From: a virus
Taxonomy: Duplodnaviria > Caudoviricetes
IMG/VR virus record: IMGVR_UViG_3300042892_002922
Span: 160,001 to 224,000 of that record
DNA: 64,000 nt
Direction: 5' to 3' (one strand)
Shown: one piece after another, positions 1,089-64,000 of the stretch
Numbering within the stretch: the first letter of the stretch is position 1
How the letters are laid out: the number at the start of each line of letters is the position of its first letter
Position numbers and translations under genes: made by a program
The notes under the pieces: generated by a model
The model's input: the letters and a program-made list of their open reading frames with translations, nothing else
What the model was told of the DNA's origin: nothing
Database searches by the model: none

Positions 1089-1134
1089 ACCTTTAGAATA
1101 ATTTGAAATAATAGTATATTTATAGTAGACAAAT

Positions 1135-2779: not shown

Positions 2780-2800
2780 TCTTTTGACTTATAACTGATT

Positions 2801-2828
2801 AAAACCCCTTTATTTTAAGGGGTTTTTT
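2801..2828 (+). terminator. Intrinsic terminator
   Basis: AAAACCCCTT-loop-AAGGGGTTTT followed by T run directly after stop at 2779. Confidence 0.8.
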
Positions 2829-2861
2829 ATTTAAATTATATGTAAAGGTATTTATACTATT

Positions 2862-4004: not shown

Positions 4005-4016
4005 TATTTATTAATA

Positions 4017-4307: not shown

Positions 4308-4317
4308 AGATAAATAA

Positions 4318-5823: not shown

Positions 5824-5854
5824 TGATAAAAATAAAAAAAGATATTTATAACAT

Positions 5855-7957: not shown

Positions 7958-7994
7958 CCATTTACATTTTTAATATCTATAGTTATTCTTGTTT

Positions 7995-43267: not shown

Positions 43268-43277
43268 AATTAAAAAT

Positions 43278-43607
43278 ATGTTAGAAAATAGAAGATGGTT
43301 AGTAATACCAACAAGCACAACTGGTTCAATAAATTTTGACCAAGTAAAAGAGTCAAGTATCGATAGTTTAAGGTTATCTGTCGATGGGTCTAAGACGTTT
43401 GTTAAATACGATGTGATGGTTGTTGAAACAACCACAACTGAAACTCAAATAAACGCAGAAACTGGCGATGAAATGACAATTACAACTGAAGCTGGAATTT
43501 ATGGTAGACCAGACATATACTCAGAAGAATATCCTGAGTATACTCATGAAGCAATTTTAGAATTATTAAGCACAACTGAATGGACAACGCCAATAGAAAA
43601 TAAATGA
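43278..43607 (+). CDS. Small acidic protein associated with LamG genes
   Basis: 109-aa ORF, coupled to the downstream LamG gene. Confidence 0.6.
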   Translation: MLENRRWLVIPTSTTGSINFDQVKESSIDSLRLSVDGSKTFVKYDVMVVETTTTETQINAETGDEMTITTEAGIYGRPDIYSEEYPEYTHEAILELLSTTEWTTPIENK

Positions 43608-46397: not shown

Positions 46398-47138
46398 ATG
46401 GACAATATTGGCTTTGGAATATTCTGCTTTGGCGAAAATTATTATTATAAGGGAACTATTGAGAAGATGGATAAGATTCTTGATAGCGGGTATTCTTGTT
46501 ATATTTTAACAGATACCCCCGATTATTTCACCGAGAGAGAAAATTTAACAATATTGACCTATCATAGAGAATTTAAATCTTATTATGATAAGATGTTGTT
46601 ACCCAAGACAATACTAAAAGAAAAAGACATCTGCATCTTACTTGATGCCGACATATATGTTAAAGATTATTCATTTTTAGAGGAATTAAAAACGTATAAT
46701 TTTTTACCGGGGATTACCTATGCTGAAACATTAGAAAGACACCCTGGAAAGAAGAAAACGGTTAACGATATTGGAATGACAGATAGGGAATGGACATCAT
46801 ATAAATTATATGCTGAAAAGATTAGTCCAAACTTTAAAAGTTTTAATACAATATGGGAATACATATTGATAATCAACAAGATAGGATTTCAACAAAAAAG
46901 ATTTTATAAAGTTTACGAGAAACTGCAAATAGCAAAAGAGTTCTCTGACTTGGAATTAAACAAAGAAGTTAACGGTGCCGGCGAAGGTGTTTCAATATCA
47001 ATCGCCGCACAATTATCTAGTAGTGACATTCAATTAGACCCTAAGTTATTTGAAATTGTAAAAGATAAAATGGTTAGTGTTTCTAGAAGATTTACAAATC
47101 CAGAATATTTGCCCGACTTTATGAAAGATGATATCTAA
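46398..47138 (+). CDS. Putative GT-A fold glycosyltransferase-like protein
   Basis: CYILTD and ILLDADIYV (DxD) motifs. Confidence 0.45.
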   Translation: MDNIGFGIFCFGENYYYKGTIEKMDKILDSGYSCYILTDTPDYFTERENLTILTYHREFKSYYDKMLLPKTILKEKDICILLDADIYVKDYSFLEELKTYNFLPGITYAETLERHPGKKKTVNDIGMTDREWTSYKLYAEKISPNFKSFNTIWEYILIINKIGFQQKRFYKVYEKLQIAKEFSDLELNKEVNGAGEGVSISIAAQLSSSDIQLDPKLFEIVKDKMVSVSRRFTNPEYLPDFMKDDI

Positions 47139-47856
47139 TTCCGACTATATTAAACAATATATCACTAACAATGATGATACCGCGGTACCTTATCGTTGGA
47201 CTCATGGTGCCACTGATTTACATTTAGGTGACGGTATTGTCGTTTACTCATTAATACAGCATATGAGGGCTAAGAATTGCGTCTGTATTGGTTCTGGTGG
47301 TGGGTTTATACCTAGAATAATCACACAAGCCAGACATGACTTACATAAAGAAGGTATTTTTGAGGGTGATGATAATTTAAGTTGGGGTGATATTGGGGTT
47401 ACTTACGTTGTTGATGCGTGTAACGGTATTGGCGGACCCAATGACCTAGAAAATGAAGAATCTTTTTATAGAAAACACTTTCACCCACGATTTATTAAGG
47501 ACACATCTGAAAACGCCTTTTATAATTTTTTTATTCTTCAGGATATCAAAATAGATTTTTTGTTTATTGATGGTGACCATTCATATGAAGGTGTAAAAAA
47601 AGATTTCGACCTTTATTCCACAATATTATCTGAAAAAGGTGTGATAGTTATTCACGACACTGATGAAAAATACGAAGAATCGTTAATAATTTCAGAAGAC
47701 GCAAAAAAAGACCATTTCCCCTTTGATGGTCCAGCTAAATTAGTTAAAGAATTACAAAATAATTCCGCCTGGAACTTGATTAATCTACATAATTTTCGTA
47801 TATTACCTACAAAACCGGCATCAACTGGGATTACAATTATTAACAGAAAATTATGA
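47128..47856 (+). CDS. Class I SAM-dependent methyltransferase (Methyltransf_24-like)
   Basis: VCIGSGGG, FIDGDHSYEGVKKDF, IVIHD. Confidence 0.8.
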   Translation: MISNSDYIKQYITNNDDTAVPYRWTHGATDLHLGDGIVVYSLIQHMRAKNCVCIGSGGGFIPRIITQARHDLHKEGIFEGDDNLSWGDIGVTYVVDACNGIGGPNDLENEESFYRKHFHPRFIKDTSENAFYNFFILQDIKIDFLFIDGDHSYEGVKKDFDLYSTILSEKGVIVIHDTDEKYEESLIISEDAKKDHFPFDGPAKLVKELQNNSAWNLINLHNFRILPTKPASTGITIINRKL

Positions 47857-48704
47857 TTCGATTAGTTACAGTTATTGGGCATGGAGTCAAACTGCTACCG
47901 CATTTCATTAAACATTATCAAAAACATGTTGATGAAATTAATATTGTTGTATATGAAACAGAAAACAATAGATTAATTGGTAATGAAGTTAAAGAAATTA
48001 TTGATGGCTACGAAAAGGTTAATATCGTTAAAGTTGTCAAGGATCGTGTTTTTGATTGGGAAAAGGTCACCTATCTATACAATAAAACAAAAAACAAACA
48101 TCCAAATGATTGGTGGGTTATTGCCGATATAGATGAGTTTCATTTATATCCAAACGATGATTTAAAGATGTTAATAACAAATTGTAACAAATATGGTTGG
48201 GATTTAGTCAGAGGTGGTTTTATAGATAGAATTGGTCCTGATGGTGAGTTTGTTGAATTGAAAGATGATGAATTCATATGGGAACAATATCCAAACGCAG
48301 GGTTTTTTAGATATCCAATGAGTAATGCTAATCCTAATAAGATTTGTGTTATGAAAGGGTATGTTGAATTAACAAGCGGGCAACACTACGCCAAGTTAGA
48401 TGGTTTCACAACATGGAAGTGGCAAGGATGGAATCATCCACTAATATATGATTCTGGTGAAGTACAAGTCCATCATTTTAAATGGGATAAAACATCTATT
48501 GATAGAATTAAGGATGTTGCAAATGTTAAGCAAGCATATGCTTACTCTGACGAATATCAAGTGATGTATGATAAACTAAGAAAGAGTAAATTTAAGATAG
48601 ATTTAAATAAATCAGAATTTATGTTTGAATTGGGGGTTAAAACACCAGAATATAAAACATATAGAAACTGGAATAAACTAATAAAAAAAATAAAAACAAT
48701 ATGA
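47853..48704 (+). CDS. Glycosyltransferase family 2-like
   Basis: LLPHFIKHY...VD, WWVIADIDEF, VHHFKW. Confidence 0.75.
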   Translation: MIRLVTVIGHGVKLLPHFIKHYQKHVDEINIVVYETENNRLIGNEVKEIIDGYEKVNIVKVVKDRVFDWEKVTYLYNKTKNKHPNDWWVIADIDEFHLYPNDDLKMLITNCNKYGWDLVRGGFIDRIGPDGEFVELKDDEFIWEQYPNAGFFRYPMSNANPNKICVMKGYVELTSGQHYAKLDGFTTWKWQGWNHPLIYDSGEVQVHHFKWDKTSIDRIKDVANVKQAYAYSDEYQVMYDKLRKSKFKIDLNKSEFMFELGVKTPEYKTYRNWNKLIKKIKTI

Positions 48705-48916
48705 GCAAAGAAGTAACACTTAAAGACGAAAAACTTGAGGCACAACTTTTAGAACAAAGAAAAGTTAAATCCTTAGAAAAAATTGCAGCGTCATTAGACG
48801 CATTAGCCATTTGGTTTGAAGAAATAGATAAGGAAGAATGGAGTGATAGAATACAATATTATTTATCTGAATTCCATGGCGTGGTAAAACCAGAAGACCC
48901 AACAATAAATGGTTAA
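48701..48916 (+). CDS. Small hypothetical protein
   Basis: 71-aa coupled ORF. Confidence 0.6.
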   Translation: MSKEVTLKDEKLEAQLLEQRKVKSLEKIAASLDALAIWFEEIDKEEWSDRIQYYLSEFHGVVKPEDPTING

Positions 48917-50300
48917 AAAATTAGGTATTATAGTTCCATACCGAAATCGGTATGAGCATTTAGAAGTGTTTAAAGAAAAAATACCCGCGTATTTTAAAAA
49001 ATTAGACATCCCTTATGAAATTATAGTTGTTAATCAGGATAACGCTAAACTTTTTAATCGTGGTATGCTTTTAAACATTGGATTTAAACGAGCAGAAAAA
49101 TTAAAATGTGATTATGTAGTTTTTCATGATGTTGATATGATACCGTTAAACGTTGATTATACTTACTCCAATGTCCCATTACATTTAGCAAGTAATTTTA
49201 TAAAACCAAAAGAAACGTTTGATTCTTATTTTGGTGGCGTAACATTATTTCCAATGGATTTATTTAAAAAAGTTAATGGTTATTCAAACAAATATTGGGG
49301 ATGGGGCTACGAAGACACTGATTTACTTTTACGCTGTGTTAAAAAGAATATTTCATTAAACGAAGTTAAACTAATTAATCAAACACCTAAAACTAAGGCA
49401 TTAAAATTTAATGGTATTAATTCATACGTAAAAAGTAAAAACAACATTAATTTAAATAAAAACCAAACAATTTTTATTTCATTTTACCCTAATAAAACAA
49501 CATTTGACCACACAAAACCTGTTGATGATTACAATGCATTCACAATTCCAGGTTACGACACAGCTTTTAGTTATAATTCTTTTCAAAGGTACAATTTTTG
49601 TACATTTGATTATAAGAATAATGCATTATATGCTAATTCAAAAATAAAGACGGAGTATAAAACAAATATGTGTGTGACGATTGATTTTTATTCAAACGAA
49701 ATATTGGTATATCAAGACGGTATTTTGGTCGATAAAATTAAAGGGTTAAGGAAGTTAATGAATTATAAAAAAGAACCATTTTTTTATTTAGGTGTAGGTG
49801 ATCCGGAAAGATTGGATAATGCTAAATTTTTTAAAGGTTATATTGATTCATTTGCGATAATACCTGAGATATTAAATGAAAAGGAAATATTTGATTTATC
49901 ACAAAATCCAAGTTATGTTTTGAACAAAGTTCAAGAATCTTTGGACATATATTATGATGCTAATTTTATTGAAGGGTATAAATTAGTTGATTTATCAGGT
50001 AATGATAATCTTGGTGAAATTGTTAATTGTGAAATTGTTGACTTAGAAGTCGACGAACATAAATCACTTAAAATTCCACACAGAAGAGATTGCACATTTT
50101 ATTTACTAGAACATGAAGAAAATGGATTCCAAGACAATAGATGGAAAACCGATGCCACAAGATGGAATCAATTAAGATACCACAATGAAGTATCAATGAA
50201 TGATGAACTATTAGAAAATGATGGATTATCTGACTTAGAATATATAGAACACGGCATAGAAGTCGTAGATAACATAACACAAATTAACGTTGGAATATGA
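48909..50300 (+). CDS. GT7 (beta-1,4-galactosyltransferase-like) glycosyltransferase with inserted LamG-like domain
   Basis: IIVPYRNR, FNRGMLLNIG, FHDVD, YFGGV, WGWGYEDTD; insertion with FFKGYIDSFAI before the C-terminal His motif. Confidence 0.82.
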   Translation: MVKKLGIIVPYRNRYEHLEVFKEKIPAYFKKLDIPYEIIVVNQDNAKLFNRGMLLNIGFKRAEKLKCDYVVFHDVDMIPLNVDYTYSNVPLHLASNFIKPKETFDSYFGGVTLFPMDLFKKVNGYSNKYWGWGYEDTDLLLRCVKKNISLNEVKLINQTPKTKALKFNGINSYVKSKNNINLNKNQTIFISFYPNKTTFDHTKPVDDYNAFTIPGYDTAFSYNSFQRYNFCTFDYKNNALYANSKIKTEYKTNMCVTIDFYSNEILVYQDGILVDKIKGLRKLMNYKKEPFFYLGVGDPERLDNAKFFKGYIDSFAIIPEILNEKEIFDLSQNPSYVLNKVQESLDIYYDANFIEGYKLVDLSGNDNLGEIVNCEIVDLEVDEHKSLKIPHRRDCTFYLLEHEENGFQDNRWKTDATRWNQLRYHNEVSMNDELLENDGLSDLEYIEHGIEVVDNITQINVGI

Positions 50301-51727
50301 ATCATAAATTAGGTATTTGTGTACCATATAGAGATAGAAAAGAACACCTTGATAGATTAATCCCACATTTATCTAAACATTTAGATTCCCAAGGAATTGA
50401 TTATAAATTTTATGTTGCACATCAAGTAGATGATAAACTTTTTAACAGAGGTGCAATGAAAAATATTGCAGCTAAACACGCATTAGAAGATGGTTGTGAT
50501 TATATTGCTTGGCACGACGTGGATATGTTGACGTTTGAAGATAGTGATTATTCATATCCAGAAGAAACTCCGATTCATATTGCAACTATGCTGTCAAAAT
50601 ACAATTATGGTATAAACTATGATCAATACTTTGGCGGAGTAGTGTTGTTTAATAAAGAACATTTAGAAAAAACAAATGGGTACTCAAACGACTATTGGGA
50701 TTGGGGTATGGAAGACGATGATTTGTTTTGGAGATGTTATTATGAAAATTATACAACAGGAAAAATAAAACGTTCATATACCAATAAACAATACGCGGAA
50801 TTTAATGGCGTTACATCTAAAATAGAAATACCAAGTACTAGGGAATTAGTTAATTTATTACATAATGACCACACAATTTCTATTTTATTTAATGCGGAAC
50901 AACAACAAGAAAAGGTTCCAATTTGGATGATTGGTGATGAACAAAAGCGCTTCATTGAATACCCCATATTTAGAAAAACCGGAGGGTATAATTACGGTTT
51001 ATCTTTTAATAATTCTAGGGCAGTTACAATGTGTTTGTTTAACGAAAGGAGACAAACAATCTACAATTGGCTGAAAAGATTTGAAAACATGTGGACGTGG
51101 GTTACACTGACATATAATAAAGAAGAGGAACGAATATTCTTTTATCTAAATGATGAATTTGGTAGGAATATGAATGGAATCAAAGAAGACGCTTATTTCC
51201 CAGCGTTTGGTAAACTTCTTAGGTACAATACAACAACCCCATTTTATTTAGGGCATGATTCAGACATGAACACATTCTTTAAGGGTAAAATAGCCGAAAT
51301 TAAGATATATGACAAGTTTTTTCCACACGTTGATATCGGTCAAGTGTTTGATACTGAGAAAGATGGATTAATTTTACACCACGATTTCTCAAATAGAGAA
51401 AATAATATTATATTTGATAATGTGGATGCTCACGAATGCATTGGAATCGATATTGTTTATGGTTCAGAGGATGTTGATGTGATTGAAAACGTAGTGCCAT
51501 TTAGACGAGAGGGTAAATTTTATTGTTTACCACACGTAGATGAGGGGTTTGTTGCTGGAAGGTGGGCTAAGGGTGAAACCACAGCTAAAAACGAAAAAAG
51601 ATTTGTTACAGAAATGCAACAGAAAAAAATAAATTACAAAGACGATGGGTTGTCAACATTAAAATATGAATTGGTTAGCGTTGAAAACTATAGTGACAAA
51701 TGTGTAATGATAAACACAAAATTATAA
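50297..51727 (+). CDS. GT7-like glycosyltransferase with inserted LamG-like domain (paralog)
   Basis: ICVPYRDR, FNRGAMKN, WHDVD, YFGGV, WDWGMEDDD; insertion with WTWVTLTYN and FFKGKIAEIKIYD. Confidence 0.82.
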   Translation: MNHKLGICVPYRDRKEHLDRLIPHLSKHLDSQGIDYKFYVAHQVDDKLFNRGAMKNIAAKHALEDGCDYIAWHDVDMLTFEDSDYSYPEETPIHIATMLSKYNYGINYDQYFGGVVLFNKEHLEKTNGYSNDYWDWGMEDDDLFWRCYYENYTTGKIKRSYTNKQYAEFNGVTSKIEIPSTRELVNLLHNDHTISILFNAEQQQEKVPIWMIGDEQKRFIEYPIFRKTGGYNYGLSFNNSRAVTMCLFNERRQTIYNWLKRFENMWTWVTLTYNKEEERIFFYLNDEFGRNMNGIKEDAYFPAFGKLLRYNTTTPFYLGHDSDMNTFFKGKIAEIKIYDKFFPHVDIGQVFDTEKDGLILHHDFSNRENNIIFDNVDAHECIGIDIVYGSEDVDVIENVVPFRREGKFYCLPHVDEGFVAGRWAKGETTAKNEKRFVTEMQQKKINYKDDGLSTLKYELVSVENYSDKCVMINTKL

Positions 51728-51728
51728 A

Positions 51729-53144
51729 ATGGCGAAGAAAAAAATCAATAAGGGTGAGAATCCTTTATATGTTGAAACAAAAGACAAACTAGACAAAATA
51801 GGTCCGGGCATGTGTTTGGCAAAATGGACACAAGTTACGATACATTTACAAAATGGTCATAACCACTCTTGCCATCACCCTACGACTCATAAAATATCTG
51901 ATAAGGAAATTATAAGAAACCCATCAGCTCTACATAATACTCGATATAAGAAAGAGAAAAGAAGAGAAATGTTGGATGGTAAAAGACCTGAAGAATGTGA
52001 TTATTGCTGGAGCGTAGAAGATAACTCTGATAGATTCTCTGATCGTGTTTTCAAGTCAAGTGAGAAATGGTCTTTACCACACTATGATGCAATTGCAAAT
52101 TCTGACTGGAGAGATGACATCAACCCAAAGTATGTTGAGGTAGCATTTTCCAATGCGTGCAACTTTAAATGTTCATATTGCGCACCACAGTTCTCGTCAC
52201 AATGGACGGCTGAAATTGAAAAATTTGGTGGTTACAAAACAAGCACAAAGTTTAATGACCCAGAGCACATGTTAAGGGAAAACACCAAGCCGTTCTTACA
52301 TACGGATAGTAATCCATACGTTGATGCTTTTTGGAAATGGTGGCCGGATTTATATCGTGACTTATATACGTTTAGAATCACTGGAGGAGAACCGCTATTA
52401 TCAAAAGATACTTGGGGTGTTTTAGATTATATCATAGAACAAAAAGAACCAAATAGAGAATTGAATTTAGCTATTAATTCAAATCTAGGTGTGCCAGATA
52501 AATTGATAGATGAATTTATTGAAAAAATATCAAGAATTACCGAAGAAAATCGTGTAAAAGAATTTGTTATTTTCACATCATGCGATGCCTGGGGAGAACA
52601 AGCTGAGTACATTAGAAATGGTTTAGTGTTTAACAGGTTTTGGGATAATGTAAACAAAATACTTACTAAATGTCCTAGAGTAACTCTAACATTTATGGTG
52701 ACATATAATGCGTTATCTGTGTTCTCATTTAATAAGTTAATTAAAGGGGTCTATGATTTAAAAAACCAATATGGTTCCAATCAAAGATATTGGGATTCAG
52801 CGGTTTTCTTGGACACATCATACCTAAGATACCCATTCCATCAAGCAGTTCAAGTGTTGCCATATCAATTTTCTAATAATGTTTTAGAACAAGCAATTAA
52901 TGCTGAGTTCTTAGGTACATTGGAATTTACAAATGACTATATTGGTTACACCGATATTGAAATTCAAAAATTAAAAAGGACATATGATTGGATGATATCA
53001 CCACAAGATGCTAATAAACAAATGGCAAATAGAAAAGATTTTCACACGTTTTTTACTGAACATGATAGAAGACGTGGGACCGATTTCCTTAAAACCTTTC
53101 CAGAACTAGAAGAGTTCTATAACTTTTGTGGAACCATAAAATAA
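51729..53144 (+). CDS. Radical SAM protein with N-terminal SPASM/twitch-like Cys cluster
   Basis: CNFKCSYC, ITGGEPLL, INSNL; N-terminal CLAKW...SCHH...CDYCW. Confidence 0.88.
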   Translation: MAKKKINKGENPLYVETKDKLDKIGPGMCLAKWTQVTIHLQNGHNHSCHHPTTHKISDKEIIRNPSALHNTRYKKEKRREMLDGKRPEECDYCWSVEDNSDRFSDRVFKSSEKWSLPHYDAIANSDWRDDINPKYVEVAFSNACNFKCSYCAPQFSSQWTAEIEKFGGYKTSTKFNDPEHMLRENTKPFLHTDSNPYVDAFWKWWPDLYRDLYTFRITGGEPLLSKDTWGVLDYIIEQKEPNRELNLAINSNLGVPDKLIDEFIEKISRITEENRVKEFVIFTSCDAWGEQAEYIRNGLVFNRFWDNVNKILTKCPRVTLTFMVTYNALSVFSFNKLIKGVYDLKNQYGSNQRYWDSAVFLDTSYLRYPFHQAVQVLPYQFSNNVLEQAINAEFLGTLEFTNDYIGYTDIEIQKLKRTYDWMISPQDANKQMANRKDFHTFFTEHDRRRGTDFLKTFPELEEFYNFCGTIK

Positions 53145-53149
53145 TAACT

Positions 53150-53884
53150 ATGAATTTAACAGTTAAACATAAGAAACCGTATTCAATTGTTCCATTAGAC
53201 AAATACAATATTTGTAAATACACCGCAAACCCTGTAATGAATGAAAAATCTTACACGTTATTTGTTGATGTTAAAATAAATAAAGATGAGTGTGATAAAG
53301 AAGCTGGAATAATTGTTAGACCAGGTATGCACGCTGGGTTTTTATTTGCACAACCTAATCTTCTAAAGTTTGGTTTCTGGTTTTTTAAAAACGATGAACC
53401 AATTTATAAAGAGGTTTTCAAATTATTAACTGACGATGATTTTGATGAACATTTGTTTTGTGTAGCAACCGATGACGCAGATACAAAGATTATAAAAGTA
53501 TACGTTAATAGCAATTTAATTGGTGAGATTGATTACAGTGAATATGATAGAAAACACAGCTACGTTGGTACACCTTATTATTTTGGTGTTGCTAATCCAT
53601 TCTTAGTTGCTAGACCTTTTGATTATTATGGTTCATTTAATTATAGATTTGCGGGTTTATTAGATGTGGTTGTTGACGATATTGAGGAATTAAAACAAAT
53701 ACAGGAGCACATTACAGTACATCCAAGATTAGAATATAATATCTTCAAAGAAGATTATAAATATAAACCAAATTTTGTATTTTACTTTGATTTTGAAAAC
53801 CAAAGCAATTACAAGGTCTGGGATGTTTCTGAGAACAATAATTTTCTATGCAGGATTTTAGATAGAGACAATAATTTAATTTAA
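53150..53884 (+). CDS. Stand-alone LamG-like domain protein
   Basis: KVYVNSNLIGE, YYFGVANP; resembles the GT7 insertions; ATG at 53150. Confidence 0.5.
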   Translation: MNLTVKHKKPYSIVPLDKYNICKYTANPVMNEKSYTLFVDVKINKDECDKEAGIIVRPGMHAGFLFAQPNLLKFGFWFFKNDEPIYKEVFKLLTDDDFDEHLFCVATDDADTKIIKVYVNSNLIGEIDYSEYDRKHSYVGTPYYFGVANPFLVARPFDYYGSFNYRFAGLLDVVVDDIEELKQIQEHITVHPRLEYNIFKEDYKYKPNFVFYFDFENQSNYKVWDVSENNNFLCRILDRDNNLI

Positions 53885-53892
53885 TATATTTT

Positions 53893-54522
53893 ATGATTAA
53901 GAATTTAGAACAATACAAAATTGTTAAAGACCCACAATATACCAAAGAAGATTTGGTTAATTTTGAAACCTTAATTAGTGAACACTGGGAAGGTGGTAAG
54001 ATTAGAGGACCAGTGCATTTATCTGACGGTAACGAAGAACCGTTAATTGAAATTTTTAAAAGAGTAAAAAAAACCGACTGGGTATTTTCAACTTGGCGAT
54101 CACACTACCATGCATTACTCAAAGGTATTTGTCCTGTTTGGTTAGAAGAAGAAATCTTGGCCGGTAAGTCAATTACTATTTGTAACATACCAGAAAGATT
54201 TTACGCATCAGCAATCGTTGGCGGTATACTACCAATCGCTTTAGGTGTTGCAAAAGGAATTAAAATGAGTGGTGGAGATGAAAAGGTTTGGTGTTGTATT
54301 GGTGATATGACATTTGAAAGTGGATTATTTTATGAAGTCCACAAATACGCTAGACGTTTTGATTTACCATTGCACTTTATTGTTGAGGATAATGATAAAT
54401 CAACCAACACACCTACATTATCAACGTGGAAAGAAAAACGCGAATTACCAGATGATGTGATATATTACAAATATGAATCAAAATACCCTCATTATGGAAC
54501 TGGAAAGTGGATTAACTTTTAA
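53893..54522 (+). CDS. ThDP-dependent dehydrogenase E1 alpha-like subunit (short)
   Basis: GPVHLSDGNEE, STWRSHYHAL, IGDM...EDN ThDP-binding motif; 209 aa. Confidence 0.85.
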   Translation: MIKNLEQYKIVKDPQYTKEDLVNFETLISEHWEGGKIRGPVHLSDGNEEPLIEIFKRVKKTDWVFSTWRSHYHALLKGICPVWLEEEILAGKSITICNIPERFYASAIVGGILPIALGVAKGIKMSGGDEKVWCCIGDMTFESGLFYEVHKYARRFDLPLHFIVEDNDKSTNTPTLSTWKEKRELPDDVIYYKYESKYPHYGTGKWINF

Positions 54523-55885: not shown

Positions 55886-57761
55886 CGGTTTGGTAGGTAC
55901 ACATTTAGTTAAGAAATGCACAAACATGGGCTATGACGTTATTGGTGTAGACATTACCCCAGTAACCAATTTACAAAATGTAAATAACTTTAAGTTTATC
56001 CAAGCGGATTTAACGAAAGGAGATGTCATTGAGCAAATTTTTAATGAAAATAACTTAGATGCAGTGTTTAACACTTTTGGTGTTAAAGGTTCACCGTTAA
56101 AGGCGAAAAATCAGCCAGTATCTTTTTTATATCCATCATTTAAAATTAACACAGAGATTATTAACCAATGTGCTAAAAAACAAATTTGGTTAGTGTTTGT
56201 AAGTTCTGTTGGGGTATATGCACCTGCTGAAAAATTTGTTGAGGATACCGTATGGAGCACTTTACCATCTGATGCGGATTGGTTCCCATCTTGGAGCAAA
56301 AGAATGGGTGAACTTTTATTAGAAGCATATAAGGTTCAATACAATTATAATAATTGGGCTATTATTCGCCCAGCAAATATTTTTGGTGAGTATGATGATT
56401 TTGAAGGTAACGGAACAGTAATTGCATCCACAATTAAAAAGGTATTTGAAGCTAATAATGAAATTGAAGCATGGGGCGATGGTACACCAATCAGAGATTT
56501 TGTATATGCTGGTGATGTTGCAGATGCTATTATAGATTTATACTTAAACGACAAGCGCATCACAGTTAACTTCGGTGCCGGTGAAGAAATTACTATCAAA
56601 CAAATGATTGATACCGTTATCAAGGTAAGCGGTAAATCGTTGGCTGTTAAATGGGATTCAAGTAAACCTAATGGTGATATGAGAAGACAAATGGATATCA
56701 CCAAACAAAAGGAAAATAATTTATTACCAAAATTAGGTTTTGAAAATGCGATAAGTGAAACCTATTCACATTATAAAAAAACACAACAAATGATAACTAA
56801 AAATTCTAAGATACTAATCACCGGTGGATCTGGATTAGTGGGCCAAAACTTAACCAATAAATTAGTTAGTGAGGGCTACAGAGATATTCGCGTAACAATA
56901 CACAGAAAAATGCCAAGAATACAACATCCTAATGTTGAATATCTAATGATTGATTTAGAAACAAGAGAAGGTGCTTTAGAAGCCACTAAAAATGTTGATG
57001 CGGTGTTTCATTGCGCGGCATCCACATCTAATGCGGTAGATACTGTTGTTGATCCGTTGGCGCACGTTACACCGAATGTGGCGATGAATAATTTTCTTAT
57101 TGACGCCGCCTGGAGAAATAAAGTTAAAAAATATATCTTCTTATCGTCAAATACAATATACCCACCAAAAGGTGATGAACCAGTGGTTGAAACCGATTTT
57201 GTATTCAGTGACATTTACCCAGTTTATTTCCCAGTCGGTTGGATGAAAAGATATGCGGAAATTCAATGTGAATTATATTCCAAATACCTACCAGAAAAGA
57301 TGGTTACAGTTATTGTTAGACCAGCAAATCTTTTTGGACCACATGACAAATATGATTTCAATAAATGTCATGTAACACCAGCAACAATCAGAAAGGTTGC
57401 AGATAAACTGAATCCAATACCAGTATGGGGTGATGGGTTAGAAGTTAGAGATTTATTATTCATTGATGACTTTGTTGACGCGTTATTATTAATCTTAGAG
57501 AAACAAGAAACACACGATGTGTTCAATGTTGGTTCAAATAAGGGGTATACCGTAAATGATGTGTTAACAACAATGAAAAACATTGCAGAATATGATGCAC
57601 CAATTGAATATGTTCAAGGAAAACCATCAATGATTCCTGTTAGATATATTGATTCAAATAAAATTAATAAAGTACTTGGTTGGGAACCTAAAACAGAACT
57701 ATCTGTTGGACTTAAAAAGGCGTACGATTGGTATTTAACAAATAGAGAAGAATTTAATTAA
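55857..57761 (+). CDS. Tandem double NAD-dependent epimerase/dehydratase (GDP-L-fucose synthase-like x2)
   Basis: Two complete extended-SDR units: TGCNGLVG...RPANIFG...WGDGTPIRDF and TGGSGLVG...RPANLFG...WGDGLEVRDL. Confidence 0.88.
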   Translation: MKKILVTGCNGLVGTHLVKKCTNMGYDVIGVDITPVTNLQNVNNFKFIQADLTKGDVIEQIFNENNLDAVFNTFGVKGSPLKAKNQPVSFLYPSFKINTEIINQCAKKQIWLVFVSSVGVYAPAEKFVEDTVWSTLPSDADWFPSWSKRMGELLLEAYKVQYNYNNWAIIRPANIFGEYDDFEGNGTVIASTIKKVFEANNEIEAWGDGTPIRDFVYAGDVADAIIDLYLNDKRITVNFGAGEEITIKQMIDTVIKVSGKSLAVKWDSSKPNGDMRRQMDITKQKENNLLPKLGFENAISETYSHYKKTQQMITKNSKILITGGSGLVGQNLTNKLVSEGYRDIRVTIHRKMPRIQHPNVEYLMIDLETREGALEATKNVDAVFHCAASTSNAVDTVVDPLAHVTPNVAMNNFLIDAAWRNKVKKYIFLSSNTIYPPKGDEPVVETDFVFSDIYPVYFPVGWMKRYAEIQCELYSKYLPEKMVTVIVRPANLFGPHDKYDFNKCHVTPATIRKVADKLNPIPVWGDGLEVRDLLFIDDFVDALLLILEKQETHDVFNVGSNKGYTVNDVLTTMKNIAEYDAPIEYVQGKPSMIPVRYIDSNKINKVLGWEPKTELSVGLKKAYDWYLTNREEFN

Positions 57762-58798
57762 TGAAATACGTACTAACATCTGGATGCTCATTTACTAGGA
57801 TAGGTTTCTTTAACGGAATGTCAGTTACTAGTGATTTTAAACAAATCCACAAACAAGGCAATCCTAACCTTTTTAAATGGACTGATTGGTTACAAGAATC
57901 ATTGGGTGAGGAGTATTCTGTAATCAACCTAGCGTCACAAACAAATGATAATGTTACAATCTCTAGAACAATATTTTATTGGGTTAACGAGTTAATGAGT
58001 AAGGGTGTTAACCCAGAAGATATTCATGTGATTATTCAATGGAGCACACCACAAAGAACCAATTTTTATGTACCAAAGGATAAATTGCCGAGAGGTAAAG
58101 AATACTATGGACATACTAGTCATTATTTAAAAAATGATGACATATATGACAATGGTGTTTTTTATTTGAGTGGTGGATTTAATTTACAAGATGCTAGTGA
58201 GAAGTTTAAAATTAGAGAATTATTAAAGGAGTACATCTATTATTATGGCAGTGATAGAGGTATGGTTAATCAAACGCTTGCTTGGTTGGAAAACTGGTCA
58301 AATCTTAAATTATTTTTTGATAAACATAAGATAAAAAATAACTACATTTCAATGTGTGATATTTTATCTGAATCTATGCAAAGAACTGGTTTTGGATTTT
58401 ACGCTGGACTTAAAGAGCACGAGTTTGAACGCGCTGTTTTGGATGAGAAACTAATTGCAGATACAAGCAAGGATCAATGTTGGTTAGAACAGAATGAGTT
58501 ATTTAGACCGTATATAAATAACATAGGGCTATATGATGATTTTTGGTTATTTAAAACGCCTACACACAAGTATGGTGGATTATTAGAATGGACAATAAAA
58601 AATTATGATAAGGTTAATCTAGAAAAATACGTTAATTTTAACGAACACCAATTAGATGTTACAATCTATGAAGAATGTATTCAACAGAAAATTAATGAAA
58701 GAGATTATTTAAAATCCGGAAGATGGTACGGACATACATCATCAATAATGGCTAGAAAATTTGTAATTGAGGAATTACTACCAACATTAAATTTGTAA
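57761..58798 (+). CDS. SGNH/GDSL-hydrolase-like hypothetical protein
   Basis: LTSGCSFT block I-like motif, NLASQTNDN, C-terminal GHTS. Confidence 0.5.
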   Translation: MKYVLTSGCSFTRIGFFNGMSVTSDFKQIHKQGNPNLFKWTDWLQESLGEEYSVINLASQTNDNVTISRTIFYWVNELMSKGVNPEDIHVIIQWSTPQRTNFYVPKDKLPRGKEYYGHTSHYLKNDDIYDNGVFYLSGGFNLQDASEKFKIRELLKEYIYYYGSDRGMVNQTLAWLENWSNLKLFFDKHKIKNNYISMCDILSESMQRTGFGFYAGLKEHEFERAVLDEKLIADTSKDQCWLEQNELFRPYINNIGLYDDFWLFKTPTHKYGGLLEWTIKNYDKVNLEKYVNFNEHQLDVTIYEECIQQKINERDYLKSGRWYGHTSSIMARKFVIEELLPTLNL

Positions 58799-58800
58799 AA

Positions 58801-59577
58801 ATGAATACATTAATTGAAAATGGTTACATAATCGAAGATGCTAAAGATTTACTATCTGAAGAACATTTTAAAGAATTAGACACGTTATGTGATTCCATCA
58901 GTACATCCGAAAAAAAATACACAAAATTCTATGAATTTGAATATTGTTTTACAAAAGAAGACACAAGTTATTTTGGTTTAACTGGCGAAAATTCTAGTGT
59001 TAAATTTGTAGATAAAATTGATGTTGGTGATAGTCCAGAAAAAAAATTTTCAGTTAAAATGAAAAAAAAACTAATTCAAAAATACTTTGATTCGGTGCAA
59101 ACATATGCTGAAAGTTTTTATGAAATAGATAGGTTTTCTTATTTATGTGATAAAATGTCACATGCAATTGCTGACAAATATTATTCACATATTTTTAATT
59201 TAGATAATTTTAGAAAAAAAGAAATACACAGCACCACTAAAAGGATTGCAACATATGATGAAGATTGTCATATTGCTAAACATAAAGATGGTTTTAACAA
59301 TAAAAGGTTATTTGTTATTTTAGTATACCTAAATAAAGAATGGGAAGATACCAATGGTGGAGATTTAGTTATTTACTCTAAAAACAATGATAAAATTTCA
59401 TTAACACCAAAAGCCCCAAGCGTTTGTGTTTTAGATTTCACAAAAAATAATTTAGAACATGAGGTGTTAAAAGTTATAGATGGTACAAGATACACATATG
59501 TGTCTTTTTATGAGGTGTCAGAATCTTTAATGATAACAGACGAATGGAAAAAACACAAGATAAAAAAAATGATATAA
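58801..59577 (+). CDS. 2OG-Fe(II) oxygenase (prolyl 4-hydroxylase-like)
   Basis: HKD, ILVYLNKEW...GGDL, HEV and RY motifs. Confidence 0.82.
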   Translation: MNTLIENGYIIEDAKDLLSEEHFKELDTLCDSISTSEKKYTKFYEFEYCFTKEDTSYFGLTGENSSVKFVDKIDVGDSPEKKFSVKMKKKLIQKYFDSVQTYAESFYEIDRFSYLCDKMSHAIADKYYSHIFNLDNFRKKEIHSTTKRIATYDEDCHIAKHKDGFNNKRLFVILVYLNKEWEDTNGGDLVIYSKNNDKISLTPKAPSVCVLDFTKNNLEHEVLKVIDGTRYTYVSFYEVSESLMITDEWKKHKIKKMI

Positions 59578-60761
59578 TGACAGAAACATTTTGCCCACTA
59601 CCATTTATTCATTTTAACGCATATCCAGACAAACAAATTAAACCTTGTTGCTACTCGCAATCATTTTTTGAAAATACCACATTAAAAAATCAAGATATTG
59701 TTACCGCTTTTAATTCTGAAGAATACCAGAAACTACGAAATGATTTACTAAATGGCGTTGAACACAAGTTCTGTGATGTTTGTTGGAAAACAGAAAAAAA
59801 TGGTGGAGAAAGCCAAAGAATTAAATGGTCAAAATTTTATGAAGATAAAAAAGAAGATATTATTGAAAGAACACAAGAAGATGGATATTACCAACCCGAC
59901 TTTGTTTCGTTAGATTTAAGACCTTCAAATATATGTAATTTCAAGTGCAGAACTTGTACCCCAGATTTTTCAACAACTTGGATTGATGAGAGAACAAAAT
60001 TTAGGGAAATTATGGGTAACGATGTTATAGATTATAAAACACAAGTTACATCATTTGATATTCCGCAAGAAAACATCAATAATCTAGAGAAAATCTATTT
60101 TGCTGGTGGTGAACCTTTATATATGGATGATATGTATAAGTTTATTGACAAGATTAAAAATAAAGAAAAGGTTGAATTATACTTTAACACGAATTTCAGT
60201 ATAATAAAACATAAAAATAAATCTGTTTTTGATTTATTTAAAGATTTCAAAAAAGTACATATTGGAATATCCTGCGATGGATACGGACCTATTGGTGAAT
60301 ATGTTAGAACCAATTTTAAATGGGAAACATTTAAAGAGAATGTGTATAAATTGGGTAATGCAATAAACAACGGCGCCAATTTTTCATATGGTTTTCAATA
60401 TACATCATCAATACTTAATTGTTTTCATTTTTTTGACTTCAGAGATATGTTATATGATATAAAATTCATATCAAATGATGGGCAATTACAATTTGGTGTT
60501 GCTGAGTATCCATTTTGGTTGAATCCAGCACATTTTGATTTAAAAGATGAGGTTATCACATATTTTGAGGGTAAAATAGATACGATACAAAATGATTCAC
60601 TGCGCACCGAGTTGAACAATTATATAATTTACTTGAAAACCTTCAATGACCCTCATTTTTATGCCTTGAATTATTTAAAAAATTTCATTAAATTAGGTGA
60701 TGAGACCAATAACACGGTTTTACCAGAAGAATTAACATATCTAAAAAAATATCTTATATGA
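59577..60761 (+). CDS. Radical SAM protein with N-terminal SPASM/twitch-like Cys cluster
   Basis: CPLPF...PCC...CDVCW; CNFKCRTC; FAGGEPL; NTNF. Confidence 0.88.
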   Translation: MTETFCPLPFIHFNAYPDKQIKPCCYSQSFFENTTLKNQDIVTAFNSEEYQKLRNDLLNGVEHKFCDVCWKTEKNGGESQRIKWSKFYEDKKEDIIERTQEDGYYQPDFVSLDLRPSNICNFKCRTCTPDFSTTWIDERTKFREIMGNDVIDYKTQVTSFDIPQENINNLEKIYFAGGEPLYMDDMYKFIDKIKNKEKVELYFNTNFSIIKHKNKSVFDLFKDFKKVHIGISCDGYGPIGEYVRTNFKWETFKENVYKLGNAINNGANFSYGFQYTSSILNCFHFFDFRDMLYDIKFISNDGQLQFGVAEYPFWLNPAHFDLKDEVITYFEGKIDTIQNDSLRTELNNYIIYLKTFNDPHFYALNYLKNFIKLGDETNNTVLPEELTYLKKYLI

Positions 60762-61279
60762 CCTACAAAGACGAATTAACTAGAGCCATGACATATATTG
60801 GAGAACAAGAAAACAGTGTCTTCATGGGGCAATCTGTGGCTTTCCCTGGTACATCATTATACAGTACATTAACAAATGTATCTAAAGAAAAATTAATCGA
60901 ATTTCCAGTACTAGAAGAAACACAAACAGGGGTTGCGTTAGGTATGAGTTTAACCGATAAATGTGTAGTGTCAATTTACCCAAGATGGGACTTTTTAATA
61001 TTGGCAACTAATCAATTAGTAAACCACATAGATAAGTTTGAATTGATGACAGGACACGCACCACACGTAATCATTAGAGTTGGTGTTGGTAGCACAAACC
61101 CATTGGACCCAGGACATCAACATAAAGCAGATTATACCGAAGCATTTAAATTATTAATGCAACAAGTAGAGGTTGTAAATTTAACTGAAGCAAATCAAGT
61201 TTTTGATACGTATAAAAGGGCGTACGATAATAAAAAACCAATAATCATTTGTGAATACCCCGACCTATACAATGCATAG
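60758..61279 (+). CDS. ThDP-dependent dehydrogenase E1 beta/transketolase pyrimidine-binding subunit (no C-terminal domain)
   Basis: FMGQSV, EFPVLEETQTGVALGMS, DFLILATNQL, GHQH; 173 aa. Confidence 0.85.
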   Translation: MTYKDELTRAMTYIGEQENSVFMGQSVAFPGTSLYSTLTNVSKEKLIEFPVLEETQTGVALGMSLTDKCVVSIYPRWDFLILATNQLVNHIDKFELMTGHAPHVIIRVGVGSTNPLDPGHQHKADYTEAFKLLMQQVEVVNLTEANQVFDTYKRAYDNKKPIIICEYPDLYNA

Positions 61280-62633
61280 ACCAACTTTTGGATACGATAT
61301 TATAACACCCAGAGGTGAATTACCTAATGGACTTGATCCTGCTAGGTTTAAATTCATCTATGACCAAGTTAAATGGAATTTTAGGGAGATATTATATTTT
61401 AATAGTTTAGACACTAATCCAGTTTATTTAGCTGGGCACTTTGACCACAAAATAATTAAAAAAAGTGTTTATGAAATCCACAAAAATAGACAACAAGGTA
61501 TAAACGAAGTATGGTATTATACAATAGAACCATTTGGTAATTTCAGAGGATTTTTGGGTCTGTTAAATGGTAAAGTGGATGATGAATTCACTATACATAT
61601 GTCAGATATTGCAAAACACGAAATAATCTCAGGGAACGGTCGTTTATTGATCAATTACACTATTGATGGGGGTATCGATGTTAATAGAAACACAATAACT
61701 AAATTGTTTGAACTTTTAAAAGCAACAAACATCCCATTTCGTAAGATTTACTTTCTTATGAATGATATTAATTTTAAAGGTAATCTTGAAAAAATTAGTG
61801 GGATTCAAAATTTAAATGTGTTTCATTTTAATTTAGCGTTGATGCAAAAGTCAAATGAAATATATAATACATTATTACATGAAGGTCGTTATTTCTTTTG
61901 GAAAAATAATACTTCATTTGTTTCCAAAGTTACACGTATTGAAGATTTCGAATTAAATTTAACCAAAAAGGATAAGAAATTTTTGATGTTAAATCGTAAC
62001 TGGAAGATGCATAGATTGGAGTTAATTAAAACACTCAGGGATAACGGTTTATTGGAAGATTCATTGGTATCGTGGGATAAGAATATGGTTAGCCACAGCG
62101 AAGCAAGAGCATTTATTGAAAAATATGACGATACCGAGTTAATGGAAATCATGAAGAACGAATCATCGATTTTAGATTATCCAGATATCGCAAATGTTCA
62201 TGGTTATGGTTTTGAAACAAAAGAAATATACTTACAAAGTTTTTTTCATATTGTTGGTGAAACTATTTATTATCAAGATGACACACCATCTGGATACGTT
62301 TCAGAAAAACCGTTTAAACCAATGGCACACTTTCAACCATTTATATTTGCGGGACCGGCCGGTGTTATTAAACATTTGAATGAATTAGGTTTTAAATCTT
62401 TTCATCCATATATTGATGAAACATATGATTCGATTACGGATGATAATGAGAGAATGAAAGCAATTAGTAACGAAGTCATTCGTCTAGGTAAACTAACTAA
62501 AGATGAGATGATTGATATTACGATGAAATTAAAAAGTGTTTTATACCACAACTATAGGATGCTATTTAATATTGGGTCACCAAAGCTCCAAGACGATAAT
62601 AGAAATAACGTAATTGAATTTTTAAATAAGTAA
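61272..62633 (+). CDS. Putative glycosyltransferase, remote GT10-like (paralog of 54494)
   Basis: YLQSFFHIVGET...GYVSEKPFKPM...QPFIFAG; ATG at 61272. Confidence 0.45.
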   Translation: MHRPTFGYDIITPRGELPNGLDPARFKFIYDQVKWNFREILYFNSLDTNPVYLAGHFDHKIIKKSVYEIHKNRQQGINEVWYYTIEPFGNFRGFLGLLNGKVDDEFTIHMSDIAKHEIISGNGRLLINYTIDGGIDVNRNTITKLFELLKATNIPFRKIYFLMNDINFKGNLEKISGIQNLNVFHFNLALMQKSNEIYNTLLHEGRYFFWKNNTSFVSKVTRIEDFELNLTKKDKKFLMLNRNWKMHRLELIKTLRDNGLLEDSLVSWDKNMVSHSEARAFIEKYDDTELMEIMKNESSILDYPDIANVHGYGFETKEIYLQSFFHIVGETIYYQDDTPSGYVSEKPFKPMAHFQPFIFAGPAGVIKHLNELGFKSFHPYIDETYDSITDDNERMKAISNEVIRLGKLTKDEMIDITMKLKSVLYHNYRMLFNIGSPKLQDDNRNNVIEFLNK

Positions 62634-64000
62634 TGAGTTATATAATTGGGATATCGGCATACTATCACGATTCTTCAGCTTGTTTGTTGAAGGATGGCGA
62701 ATTGTTGTTTGCATGTGAAGAAGAAAAATTCACAGGTATAAAACATGATAGTTCATTCCCAAATAAAACCATTGAATACATCTTTAAAAAGTATAATTTA
62801 ACTAAAAAAGATATTGAGGCGGTATGTTATTATGAAGATTTAGATTTAAAAGTACAAAGAGTTATTAATAATTCAAAAAAAGTTTTCCTTAAGACACCAA
62901 TATATTCTATTAAGAGTGTATATAATGTTTTAAAGAACAAAAAAGATGTTAAGAAGAATTTAGCAAAAATATCTGATAAAGTTTTCTACTCTAAACATCA
63001 CGACTCACATACATACTATTCATTTTATACATCACCATTTAATGACGCTGTTGTTTTATCGGTTGATGGTGTTGGTGAAAGTGAAACAATACAAATTGCC
63101 ACAATCTATAATAATAAGTTATATCAAATACCACACACAGAATACCCAAACTCATTAGGGTTATTTTATTCTGCTATGACATCTTTCTTAGGGTTTAAAC
63201 CCAATGAAGGTGAATATAAAGTAATGGGTTTGGCATCTTATGGAAACCCTAAAAAATATAGACAAAAAATAGATTCATTAATTTCATACAAACAAGGGTT
63301 TTTAACTTGCAATATGGATTGTTTTGTTTGGGATAGAAGTGACAAGGTTATGTTCAACCATAATCTATCAAAAAAATTAGGGATTGAAAATAGATTACCA
63401 GATGAAAAACTAACAGTACAACATCACGATTTAGCGGCCGCGGTTCAAGAAACCTACGAGGTTATTTTAAGTAAAATACTAGAAGAGATATCAATATTAA
63501 CTAACACTAGAAATTTATGTCTTAGCGGTGGCTGTGCTTACAACGGATCAGCAAATGGAAAGTTAACAAATAACGGTTGGTTTAAAAATTTATGGATACC
63601 TCCAGCACCATCTGATGCAGGATCGGCTATTGGTGCGTGTTTAAATTATCTGGACACTAATAATAAACTAACAAAAAAGATTGACACAACACCGTTCTTA
63701 GGCCCAGAATACACTAATGAGGAATACTTGTCGGTTATCGATGAAGAAATAGTGAGATACAGTGAAATAAGTAGAGAAAAACTATTAAAATTAATTTCTA
63801 CCGAATTATATAATGGCAAAGTTGTTGGATGGTTCCAAGGTAAAATTGAATTTGGTTCTAGAGCATTGGGTAACAGGTCGATACTAGCAAATCCAATGAT
63901 AATTGGTATGCAAAAGAAGATTAATCGTGTTATAAAGAAGCGAGAACTTTTTAGACCATTTGCACCTATGGTGACAAAAGAAAATCAAACAAAATATTTT
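62633..64000 (+). CDS. Carbamoyltransferase (NodU/CmcH family), 3' truncated by window edge; missed by ORF track
   Basis: YHDSSACL, KHD, HHDSH, SVDGVGE, SLGLFYS, GEYKVMGLA, GGCAYN, PSDAGSAIG, EFGSRALGNRSIL, KRELFRPFAP. Confidence 0.92.
   Translation, partial: MSYIIGISAYYHDSSACLLKDGELLFACEEEKFTGIKHDSSFPNKTIEYIFKKYNLTKKDIEAVCYYEDLDLKVQRVINNSKKVFLKTPIYSIKSVYNVLKNKKDVKKNLAKISDKVFYSKHHDSHTYYSFYTSPFNDAVVLSVDGVGESETIQIATIYNNKLYQIPHTEYPNSLGLFYSAMTSFLGFKPNEGEYKVMGLASYGNPKKYRQKIDSLISYKQGFLTCNMDCFVWDRSDKVMFNHNLSKKLGIENRLPDEKLTVQHHDLAAAVQETYEVILSKILEEISILTNTRNLCLSGGCAYNGSANGKLTNNGWFKNLWIPPAPSDAGSAIGACLNYLDTNNKLTKKIDTTPFLGPEYTNEEYLSVIDEEIVRYSEISREKLLKLISTELYNGKVVGWFQGKIEFGSRALGNRSILANPMIIGMQKKINRVIKKRELFRPFAPMVTKENQTKYF

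Follow-up and report, generated by a model that had tools for sequence, protein, structure and literature searches.

Why should a large phage carry, directly behind its tail-fibre genes, a long run of genes apparently suited to building and decorating a sugar chain, and to what would such a chain be attached? The question is raised by a 64,000-nucleotide (nt) stretch of the virus record IMGVR_UViG_3300042892_002922 (positions 160,001 to 224,000, here called the window), in which 17 co-oriented, abutting or overlapping genes, i.e. 16 open reading frames (ORFs) of 173–634 amino acids (aa) and one of 71 aa, occupy positions 46398–64000 and begin 35 nt past a LamG gene that ends at 46362. An earlier note on this DNA had described this layout, with which the ORFs agree, and had proposed that the phage uses these genes to glycosylate its own virion proteins, namely mucin-like and collagen-like fibres. 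Our analysis suggests that the phage most likely glycosylates its own Ser-rich fibres, a reading to which we give about an even chance and which is preferred because of how four genomes sort the parts of the gene island. Judged by its predicted products, the island appears to be a cytoplasmic set for building and tailoring a glycan, embedded in the tail-fibre module.

A TibC-family enzyme beside collagen-like fibres

The window holds the first half of the island. The continuation was traced on contigs encoding the exact protein of u460, one of the last island genes in the window, and chained by exact proteins; because contigs L091, L094 and L095 are 99.93%, 100% and 99.97% identical across their overlaps, they were treated as the same phage. 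The whole island extends from 46398 to ∼82.5 kb in window-equivalent coordinates (∼36 kb, ∼40 genes), so that the extent given in the earlier note is real but covers only half of it. Past the carbamoyltransferase gene that is cut by the window end there are a third radical S-adenosylmethionine (SAM) enzyme, an adenosine 5′-phosphosulfate (APS) kinase, several 2-oxoglutarate (2OG) oxygenases, a fourth radical SAM enzyme and unknown proteins, as well as two short ORFs, of 38 aa and 29 aa, and a protein of 495 aa without assignment. The distal end is formed by a 906-aa fusion of a family 4 glycosyltransferase (GT4) with an FkbM methyltransferase, a further methyltransferase and, as the last gene, a 707-aa TibC-like protein.

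In Escherichia coli, TibC adds heptose to many serines of the adhesin TibA; enzymes of its family take ADP-heptose as donor and assemble into a dodecameric ring. Residues 344–705 of the 707-aa phage protein align to residues 22–386 of the 406 residues of TibC (phmmer, E=1.7e-54), and the protein scores 31.8 bits against Pfam Glyco_transf_9 (cut-off 22 bits). TibC has a catalytic Asp110 and an Fe-binding ‘iron finger’ formed by Cys339, Cys342, Cys358 and Cys370 (PDB 4RAP/4RB4; PMC4358343). The phage protein presents the identical residue, within S-L-G-D, at Asp110 (the D110A site of 4RB4), and Cys at all four iron-finger positions. By these alignments the distal protein is a true member of the TibC family (bacterial autotransporter heptosyltransferases, BAHT) and is predicted to be a protein serine O-glycosyltransferase. 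The gene arrangement is likewise that of tibC/tibA, with the enzyme gene directly upstream of one for a repetitive surface protein rich in Ser: 45 nt after the TibC-like gene begins the gene of a 1288-aa fibre, which contains 204 Gly-Ser/Thr-type triplets and is followed by LamG and Gly-rich proteins, and fibre genes thus flank the island on both sides. Unlike the known BAHT enzymes, the phage protein has a further 343 aa at its N terminus, and the substrate presumed for it is not a β-helical autotransporter but a collagen-like tail fibre of the Gly-Ser/Thr type. A literature search found no paper on TibC-type enzymes of phages.

Within the window, the best candidate acceptor on sequence grounds is the 1064-aa collagen-like fibre encoded at 37259–40453, whose central domain shares 82.6% identity with that of the 1288-aa fibre. 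It consists of 44.5% Ser+Thr, 22.5% Gly and 0.8% Pro (338 Ser, 135 Thr and 8 Pro residues), with Gly-Ser-Ser and Gly-Thr-Ser triplets arranged in two blocks; its composition, and the Ser/Thr richness of the proteins encoded at 3–5823, are as the earlier note had described them. A Mimivirus-like route of collagen Pro/Lys hydroxylation and glycosylation was considered as well and is unlikely, because the 1064 residues of this fibre include just 8 Pro and 11 Lys.

The TibC-like gene has 235 viral relatives. In 20 of 40 non-redundant loci a Gly-Ser/Thr repeat gene was found within 6 kb on the 3′ side of the TibC-like gene, compared with 6 of 47 on the 5′ side (p=3e-4), and the closest relatives have such a 3′ gene in 7 of 10 cases. 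One relative belongs to a cultured cyanophage, Microcystis phage Mel-JY01 (PP395634.1; L305), which encodes at 3065–8430 a 1226-aa fusion of GT4 and TibC-like parts that is annotated merely as ‘methyltransferase FkbM’. This gene lies directly 3′ of that for a Ser-rich structural protein, WWT39289.1, which has the motif SGSTKFGDT..HEFTGS in common with the window's fibre. TibC-like genes (35–42% identity) were also noticed in the ‘uncultured phage’ GenBank records LR756501/LR756503 (735 kb) and LR756504 (636 kb).

The window's phage was compared with three related genomes, G002 (complete), G003 (93% complete) and G004 (92% complete). In G002 the complete layout recurs, and there are two TibC-like genes and five collagen-like fibres. 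G003 retains only the conserved core of the island, a u470-like gene and the carbamoyltransferase, and has neither a TibC-like gene nor a collagen-like fibre. In G004 neither island genes nor collagen-like fibres occur, although TPT-type proteins of very large size are encoded. The window's phage and G002 possess the TibC module together with collagen-like fibres, and G003 and G004 are without either, an agreement in four of four genomes that fits, for this module, the island/fibre co-occurrence which the earlier note had put forward as a check; the core does not conform, since G003 has it without such a fibre. The TPT proteins stand alongside the core cassette in the window's phage, G002 and G003, but do not need the island, because G004 has them without any island gene, and they were rejected as its obligate acceptor. 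Thus, the TibC module goes together with the collagen-like fibres, the core in the window is independent of these fibres, and the TPT proteins are independent of the island. Of the self-glycosylation proposed earlier, the part concerning collagen-like fibres is supported by the TibC neighbour, whereas the mucin-like TPT acceptors find no support. The 45-nt gap, the 3′ bias among loci and the co-variation in the four genomes would be compatible with an enzyme that, like TibC, acts on the neighbouring Ser-rich protein. One TPT protein of G004, a 288-kb phage, is 5472 aa long (G004:C1:107949-124367; L295-L296) and has ∼90% of its residues in Ser/Thr-X repeats.

Island genes inside the window and their surroundings

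Table 1. Features of the fibre module and glycan island (window positions unless stated otherwise; GT, glycosyltransferase; ThDP, thiamine diphosphate; SDR, short-chain dehydrogenase/reductase).
Feature	Position	Strand	Basis
Two fibre proteins, 916 and 489 aa	32738..37175	+	PHROG structural-protein matches; composition
Collagen-like fibre, 1064 aa	37259..40453	+	Pfam Collagen, 232 bits; composition
Three small paralogous proteins, 190–210 aa	40457..42565	+	ORFs, sequences
LamG (ConA-like lectin) fibre-tip proteins, 224, 409 and 509 aa, and a 109-aa ORF	42593..46362	+	Laminin_G_3
u246, 246 aa, invariant D-A-D motif	46398..47138	+	Alignment; 27/80 loci
Core gene 1, class I SAM methyltransferase (Methyltransf_24)	47128..47856	+	49.7 bits (cut-off 26.3); 78/80 loci
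Core gene 2, GT2_4-like putative GT-A transferase	47853..48704	+	Invariant D-x-D-E motif; 78/80 loci
Core gene 3, 71-aa ORF	48701..48916	+	tblastn match in 79/80 loci
Core genes 4 and 5, tandem GT7 (GT7a, GT7b) with inserted pentraxin/LamG-like domain	48909..51727	+	Pfam; model
Core gene 6, twitch-domain radical SAM enzyme (NF033640)	51729..53144	+	355.9 bits (cut-off 170); 72/80 loci
u252, stand-alone homolog of GT7 LamG-like insert	53126..53884	+	hhalign; directly past radical SAM gene in 21/80 loci
ThDP enzyme PP-domain subunit, E1-alpha-like, truncated (209 aa)	53893..54522	+	E1_dh, 40.5 bits
u470, GT-B-fold glycosyltransferase-like	54473..55885	+	Phage-only family; model
Double extended-SDR nucleotide-sugar epimerase/reductase, two fused domains, 634 aa	55857..57761	+	Epimerase, 278 bits
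u345	57761..58798	+	DUF6071, below threshold
2OG-Fe(II) oxygenase	58801..59577	+	2OG-FeII_Oxy_3, 45.6 bits
Second twitch radical SAM enzyme (NF033640)	59544..60761	+	293.3 bits (cut-off 170)
ThDP enzyme Pyr-domain subunit, E1-beta-like, truncated (173 aa)	60758..61279	+	Transket_pyr, 36.6 bits
u460, GT-B-like paralog of u470	61251..62633	+	Same Atlas clusters as u470
NodU/Nol-type carbamoyltransferase, cut by window end	62633..64000	+	Carbam_trans_N, 206 bits
TibC-like protein, 707 aa	L095:10657-12780, beyond window		phmmer against TibC

The methyltransferase, both GT7 enzymes, both radical SAM enzymes, the SDR, the ThDP pair, the 2OG oxygenase and the carbamoyltransferase named in the earlier note score above curated thresholds. 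The core cassette was surveyed in 80 viral loci with a GT7a homolog; its order (methyltransferase, GT2-like protein, 71-aa ORF, GT7a, GT7b, radical SAM enzyme) is kept in 72–78 of them, and the genes on its 3′ side vary between loci. The cassette invariably lies directly 3′ of long fibre ORFs with 22–49% Ser+Thr, only some of them collagen-like and others with Peptidase_S74 chaperones. Co-variation of the core with LamG tip proteins fits the four genomes and was rejected as a general rule, as distant loci have S74-chaperone fibres without LamG.

GT7a and GT7b match Glyco_transf_7N and Glyco_transf_7C at 75, 70, 68 and 69 bits (above Pfam thresholds) and, in addition, Laminin_G_3. Alignment of 23 homologs revealed invariant FNRG, H-DVD, YFGGV and WGWG-ED-D motifs, including residues H73, D74, D76, W130, W132, G133, E135 and D136. 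The structural model (predicted local distance difference test, pLDDT, 92.6) matched β4GalT1 at Z=27 with a root mean square deviation (rmsd) of 2.0 Å over 211 residues spanning model residues 1–463, and pentraxin/LamG structures matched residues 160–389, a domain of ∼230 aa, at Z∼21. In the alignment the last catalytic part comes after the LamG region; as the catalytic fold resumes after residues 160–389, the lectin-like domain is inserted inside it. The modelled enzymes share with GT7 the Pfam domains, the DVD metal motif, WGWG-ED-D and the GT-A fold, and depart from it in that the catalytic domain is not contiguous but interrupted by the LamG/pentraxin-like part; by alignment and model they are GT7 members of a new domain architecture. 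This fusion family comprises 1542 protein clusters in metagenomes. No GT7a homolog was found in 50,697 GenBank phage records, nor any member of the fusion family in a cultured phage; in genome collections the full architecture occurred on phage-like contigs only, true bacteria such as Azospirillum matching the plain GT7 part alone. The inserts were rejected as recent copies of the tip LamG domains (E 0.005 or worse). The stand-alone u252 matches the insert with an hhalign probability of 98.5% (E=3.7e-15, 203 columns) and may be a separate glycan-binding subunit.

Other transferase assignments stood in part. The GT2-like protein does match Glyco_tranf_2_4 (E=2e-5), but at 25.3 bits, under the Pfam threshold of 27.5. 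For u246, listed earlier as a ‘DxD protein’ among the transferases, the D-A-D motif is invariant and the language-model (Atlas) neighbours carry GT8, Mannosyl_trans3 or TOD1 at 0.95–0.96; it is a possible GT-A (GT8-like) transferase, which we treat as a lead only. The two proteins called GT10-like are u470 and u460, a paralogous GT-B-fold pair for which GT10 membership is not established. The u470 model (pLDDT 76.8) gave GT-B matches only, with T4 DNA β-glucosyltransferase (BGT; Z 11.5), fucosyltransferase (FucT; 10.8) and the serine-rich-adhesin transferase Gtf3 (10.1) effectively tied, and the u470 Atlas clusters are 100% viral; the pair represents a family of glycosyltransferase-like proteins with predicted GT-B fold that has been seen in phages only. 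The start of u460, whose exact 453-aa product was called on 13 contigs, probably lies at 61272. The ‘SGNH-like’ label of u345 was not confirmed, since it had only the sub-threshold DUF6071 match and single-sequence searches gave no match among solved structures; profile searches with u246, u252 and the GT2-like protein were likewise without a match there. The 71-aa ORF, which fills a seeming gap between the GT2-like gene and GT7a, matched no known family. Both SDR halves are nearest to GDP-fucose synthase, yet well under its cut-off, and the E1-alpha-like subunit matches TIGR03182 at E=7e-22, well under the cut-off of that model. The whole carbamoyltransferase (full gene on L091) has 559 aa and matches NodU at E=1e-48.

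Among 38 island proteins (window and L091/L095 extension), 23 end in Leu or Ile, compared with 5 of 41 other window ORFs (Fisher p=1.3e-5), and further downstream the pattern tightens to K-x-(S/T)-L-(L/I). This ending could be a docking tag or could be a by-product of the last codons acting as an A/T-rich leader for the abutting gene. The sequence TATTTAT on the + strand, overall rarer than chance in the window, has 14 of its 27 copies in the 80 nt that precede a start codon (p=7e-10), often just past a terminator hairpin as upstream of 35706; sites include 1117, 2849, 5843, 25361, 29309, 31878, 32709, 37216, 42582 (5 nt before the start of the first LamG-region gene) and 48860, and the copy ahead of GT7a falls within the 71-aa ORF of the core, itself conserved. 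The motif is a candidate for a promoter element common to the fibre genes and the island, and only a hint of co-regulation. No convincing + strand terminator was found between the fibre genes and the island.

Among the surrounding genes, the 916- and 489-aa fibre proteins contain 24–28% Ser+Thr and the N-terminal fibre motif ‘MAQI(I/V)K.RR’. The three small paralogs, kept at 49–56% identity upstream of the cassette in four related loci and placed between the fibre and LamG genes, are probably fibre-tip proteins. Two of the LamG proteins score 82 and 50 bits against Laminin_G_3, and the 224-aa protein is related by BLAST (E=4e-13). The TPT-linker proteins at 3–5823 have 26–38% Ser+Thr; the 313-nt ‘gap’ between two of their genes (4005–4317) has an ATG start and ∼100 open codons and is probably an extra small gene overlooked by the 100-aa ORF filter.

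The window has a GC content of 29–44% and dense genes, nearly all on the + strand, without Shine-Dalgarno sequences at gene starts. Its nearest record, G001 (91 kb), is 92–98% identical to window 1–43366 and stops there, and was thus useless as an island comparator; as CheckV rates it 27% complete, a whole genome of ∼340 kb is implied. A tail sheath is encoded by G001, sheath and large terminase by each of G002–G004 (288–336 kb), and a phage-type primase and SbcC-like nuclease (8.7–15.5 kb, distant from the island) by the window together with tail-fibre proteins; the genes therefore indicate a large contractile-tailed phage. Its sequence recurs near-unchanged in 20 lake/freshwater metagenomes from 17 studies. 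Matches in ‘bacterial’ genome bins are few and mostly from Flavobacteriaceae/Flavobacteriales, a weak hint of a Flavobacteriia host.

Possible targets of the glycan

Three layers make up the island. The first is the conserved core (methyltransferase, GT2-like protein, 71-aa ORF, the two lectin-inserted GT7 enzymes and the twitch radical SAM enzyme). The second is a variable set for sugar-nucleotide supply and tailoring and comprises, in the window, the double SDR, the split ThDP enzyme, the second radical SAM enzyme, the 2OG oxygenase, the two GT-B proteins and the carbamoyltransferase, and past it the APS kinase and more oxygenases and radical SAM enzymes. The third, distal layer consists of the GT4-FkbM fusion, the methyltransferase and the TibC-family enzyme directly before the second Gly-Ser/Thr fibre. 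In the course that we propose, the TibC-like enzyme would, late in infection, attach the first sugar to Ser/Thr of the near-proline-free Gly-X-Y tracts, the other transferases would lengthen the chain while the lectin-like inserts grip the growing glycan, and the tailoring enzymes would finally add methyl, carbamoyl and perhaps sulfate groups to it. Such a glycan would lend stability or protection to fibres lacking proline and hydroxyproline, the normal stabilisers of a collagen helix. A bolder version, which we consider rather doubtful, would be a mucin-like line in the bacterial cytoplasm, with TibC-type priming, processive extension by phage-restricted GT7-lectin enzymes, tailoring by ∼30 genes and a glycan that replaces hydroxyproline; it is a similarly tentative idea that its sugars would be branched, methylated, carbamoylated and sulfated and that the glycan would set fibre stiffness, protease resistance or host range.

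Several points weigh against fibre self-glycosylation. All evidence for it consists of sequence and comparison; the four-genome comparison is small and ignores shared ancestry, and adjacency by itself says little, given that phages in general tend to keep their gene order. The TibC-like gene is not in the window but ∼18 kb beyond it. The usual role of GT7 enzymes is to lengthen existing sugars, not to begin chains on protein, and the presence of the core in G003 without a collagen-like fibre or TibC-like gene means that the acceptor of the core may differ. A search for a phage-encoded ADP-heptose pathway detected none: there was no GmhA-type isomerase in G002–G004, where one small cytidylyltransferase-like ORF of G002 is the sole ADP-heptose-type candidate. 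A sequence search of RNA runs gave no match to the phage.

The explanation that survives next best, although we consider it unlikely, is that the glycan is meant for something other than fibres: non-fibre virion proteins (e.g. the TPT-linker decoration), host proteins, a small phage peptide or a natural product. The twitch radical SAM enzymes, carbamoyltransferase, ThDP pair, methyltransferases and 2OG oxygenases do resemble those of antibiotic or modified-peptide clusters, the 38- and 29-aa ORFs and the 495-aa protein of the extension could serve such a product, and core and TPT proteins occur together in three of the genomes. However, G004 has TPT proteins without island genes, a set of six to eight transferase-like proteins that includes two with lectin inserts points to a macromolecular glycan, and the island position between fibre genes is conserved.

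Conversion of the host surface appears somewhat less probable still. Soluble transferases would here act, on the inner side of the membrane, on lipid-linked polysaccharide precursors of the host and rely on its flippases and polymerases, so that the receptor glycan is changed and infected cells or debris stop binding progeny or competing phages. The hydropathy scan detected no membrane-type segment in the 16 larger island ORFs of the window (maximum over 19 residues 1.75, threshold 1.9), i.e. none of the membrane-embedded components of Gtr/Wzy-type seroconversion; the predicted solubility of the island is nevertheless compatible with this explanation, because transferases that work on undecaprenyl-linked intermediates usually look soluble from their sequences. 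Bac_transf, the initiating phosphoglycosyltransferase, was absent from G002 and G003, other membrane families not having been searched. The GT7 lectin-like domains and the fibre-tip proteins fall into one broad family, but the inserts are not close kin of the tip LamG domains. The core cassette does occur independently of collagen-like fibres; nevertheless, the island sits in the tail-fibre module and not among early or lysogeny genes, and the TibC homolog belongs to protein, not lipid-linked, glycosyltransferases.

DNA hypermodification, an alternative named in the earlier note by which sugars on modified genome bases would evade restriction as in T4, is very improbable: the top structural match of u470 is T4 BGT and G003 encodes a 430-aa thymidylate-synthase-family protein (G003:C1:102906-103946), but that match is effectively tied with other transferases, the complete G002 has the full island without a thymidylate-synthase-family gene (PF00303) from which a hydroxymethyl base could come, the island lies in the fibre module remote from replication genes, and sugars and proteins are what enzymes of the GT7 and TibC families act on.

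Known systems and meaning of the island

Virus-encoded virion glycosylation is established in chloroviruses and, for capsid and tail, in mycobacteriophages. It is also described for the fibrils of Mimivirus/Megavirinae (PMC9614988), and mycobacteriophage glycosylation is mentioned in PMC11256854. The likeness to these viruses lies in transferases and sugar-nucleotide enzymes that the virus itself supplies, from gene clusters close to the structural genes, and in the rare tailored sugars to be expected. The present case, in which the glycan is predicted, differs in being a tailed phage of a Gram-negative-type host, in an island much bigger than the set of two or three transferase genes known from mycobacteriophages, and in a BAHT-type enzyme and lectin-inserted GT7, unreported there.

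As to the acceptor, BclA of Bacillus and BclA3 of Clostridioides difficile are glycosylated collagen-like spore proteins (PMC10050317, PMC7157674). Like the phage fibres, they are filamentous surface proteins with Gly-X-Thr/Ser repeats, theirs being densely O-glycosylated by dedicated transferases, and BclA carries unusual methylated sugars. In contrast to the phage fibre with 0.8% Pro, the BclA repeats are Pro-rich, and that system is cellular, not viral, and uses other transferase families. In the cuticle collagen of Riftia, glycosylated Thr instead of hydroxyproline stabilises the helix.

The GT7 enzymes resemble animal β4GalT7 and β4GalT1 (33–38% identity, rmsd ∼2 Å, Z=27) with metal and donor motifs kept, and the pairing of a catalytic unit with a lectin-type domain is analogous to that of polypeptide GalNAc-transferases. 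Unlike in these animal enzymes, the phage lectin-like domain is not appended but inserted between WGWG-ED-D and the C-terminal His-bearing segment, and the membrane anchor of animal GT7 is missing. The split ThDP enzyme recalls AviB1/AviB2, pairs like pyruvate dehydrogenase E1 with which antibiotic pathways attach two-carbon branches to sugars. Here too, separate E1-alpha-like and E1-beta-like subunits are encoded among sugar-nucleotide SDR genes; the phage subunits differ in that they are cut to single domains and lie six genes apart.

The present case adds the size and layering of the island, its lectin-inserted GT7 core, the four-genome comparison and the handle offered by Mel-JY01, a cultured relative of the TibC module through which the idea becomes testable. 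Candidates for new glycoenzymes are the GT7 enzymes with internal lectin, the phage-only GT-B family and the twitch radical SAM enzymes. To our knowledge, complex virus-encoded protein glycosylation has so far been seen only in giant viruses of eukaryotes and, in simple form, in mycobacteriophages; if fibre self-glycosylation is true, it would extend to large phages of Gram-negative-type hosts, in this case to one that is abundant and persistent in lakes. It would as well give a structural reason for the common and puzzling proline-free Gly-Ser/Thr ‘collagen-like’ fibres of phages, whose glycans could influence which hosts are infected, how stable the particle is and how grazers or immune systems recognise it.

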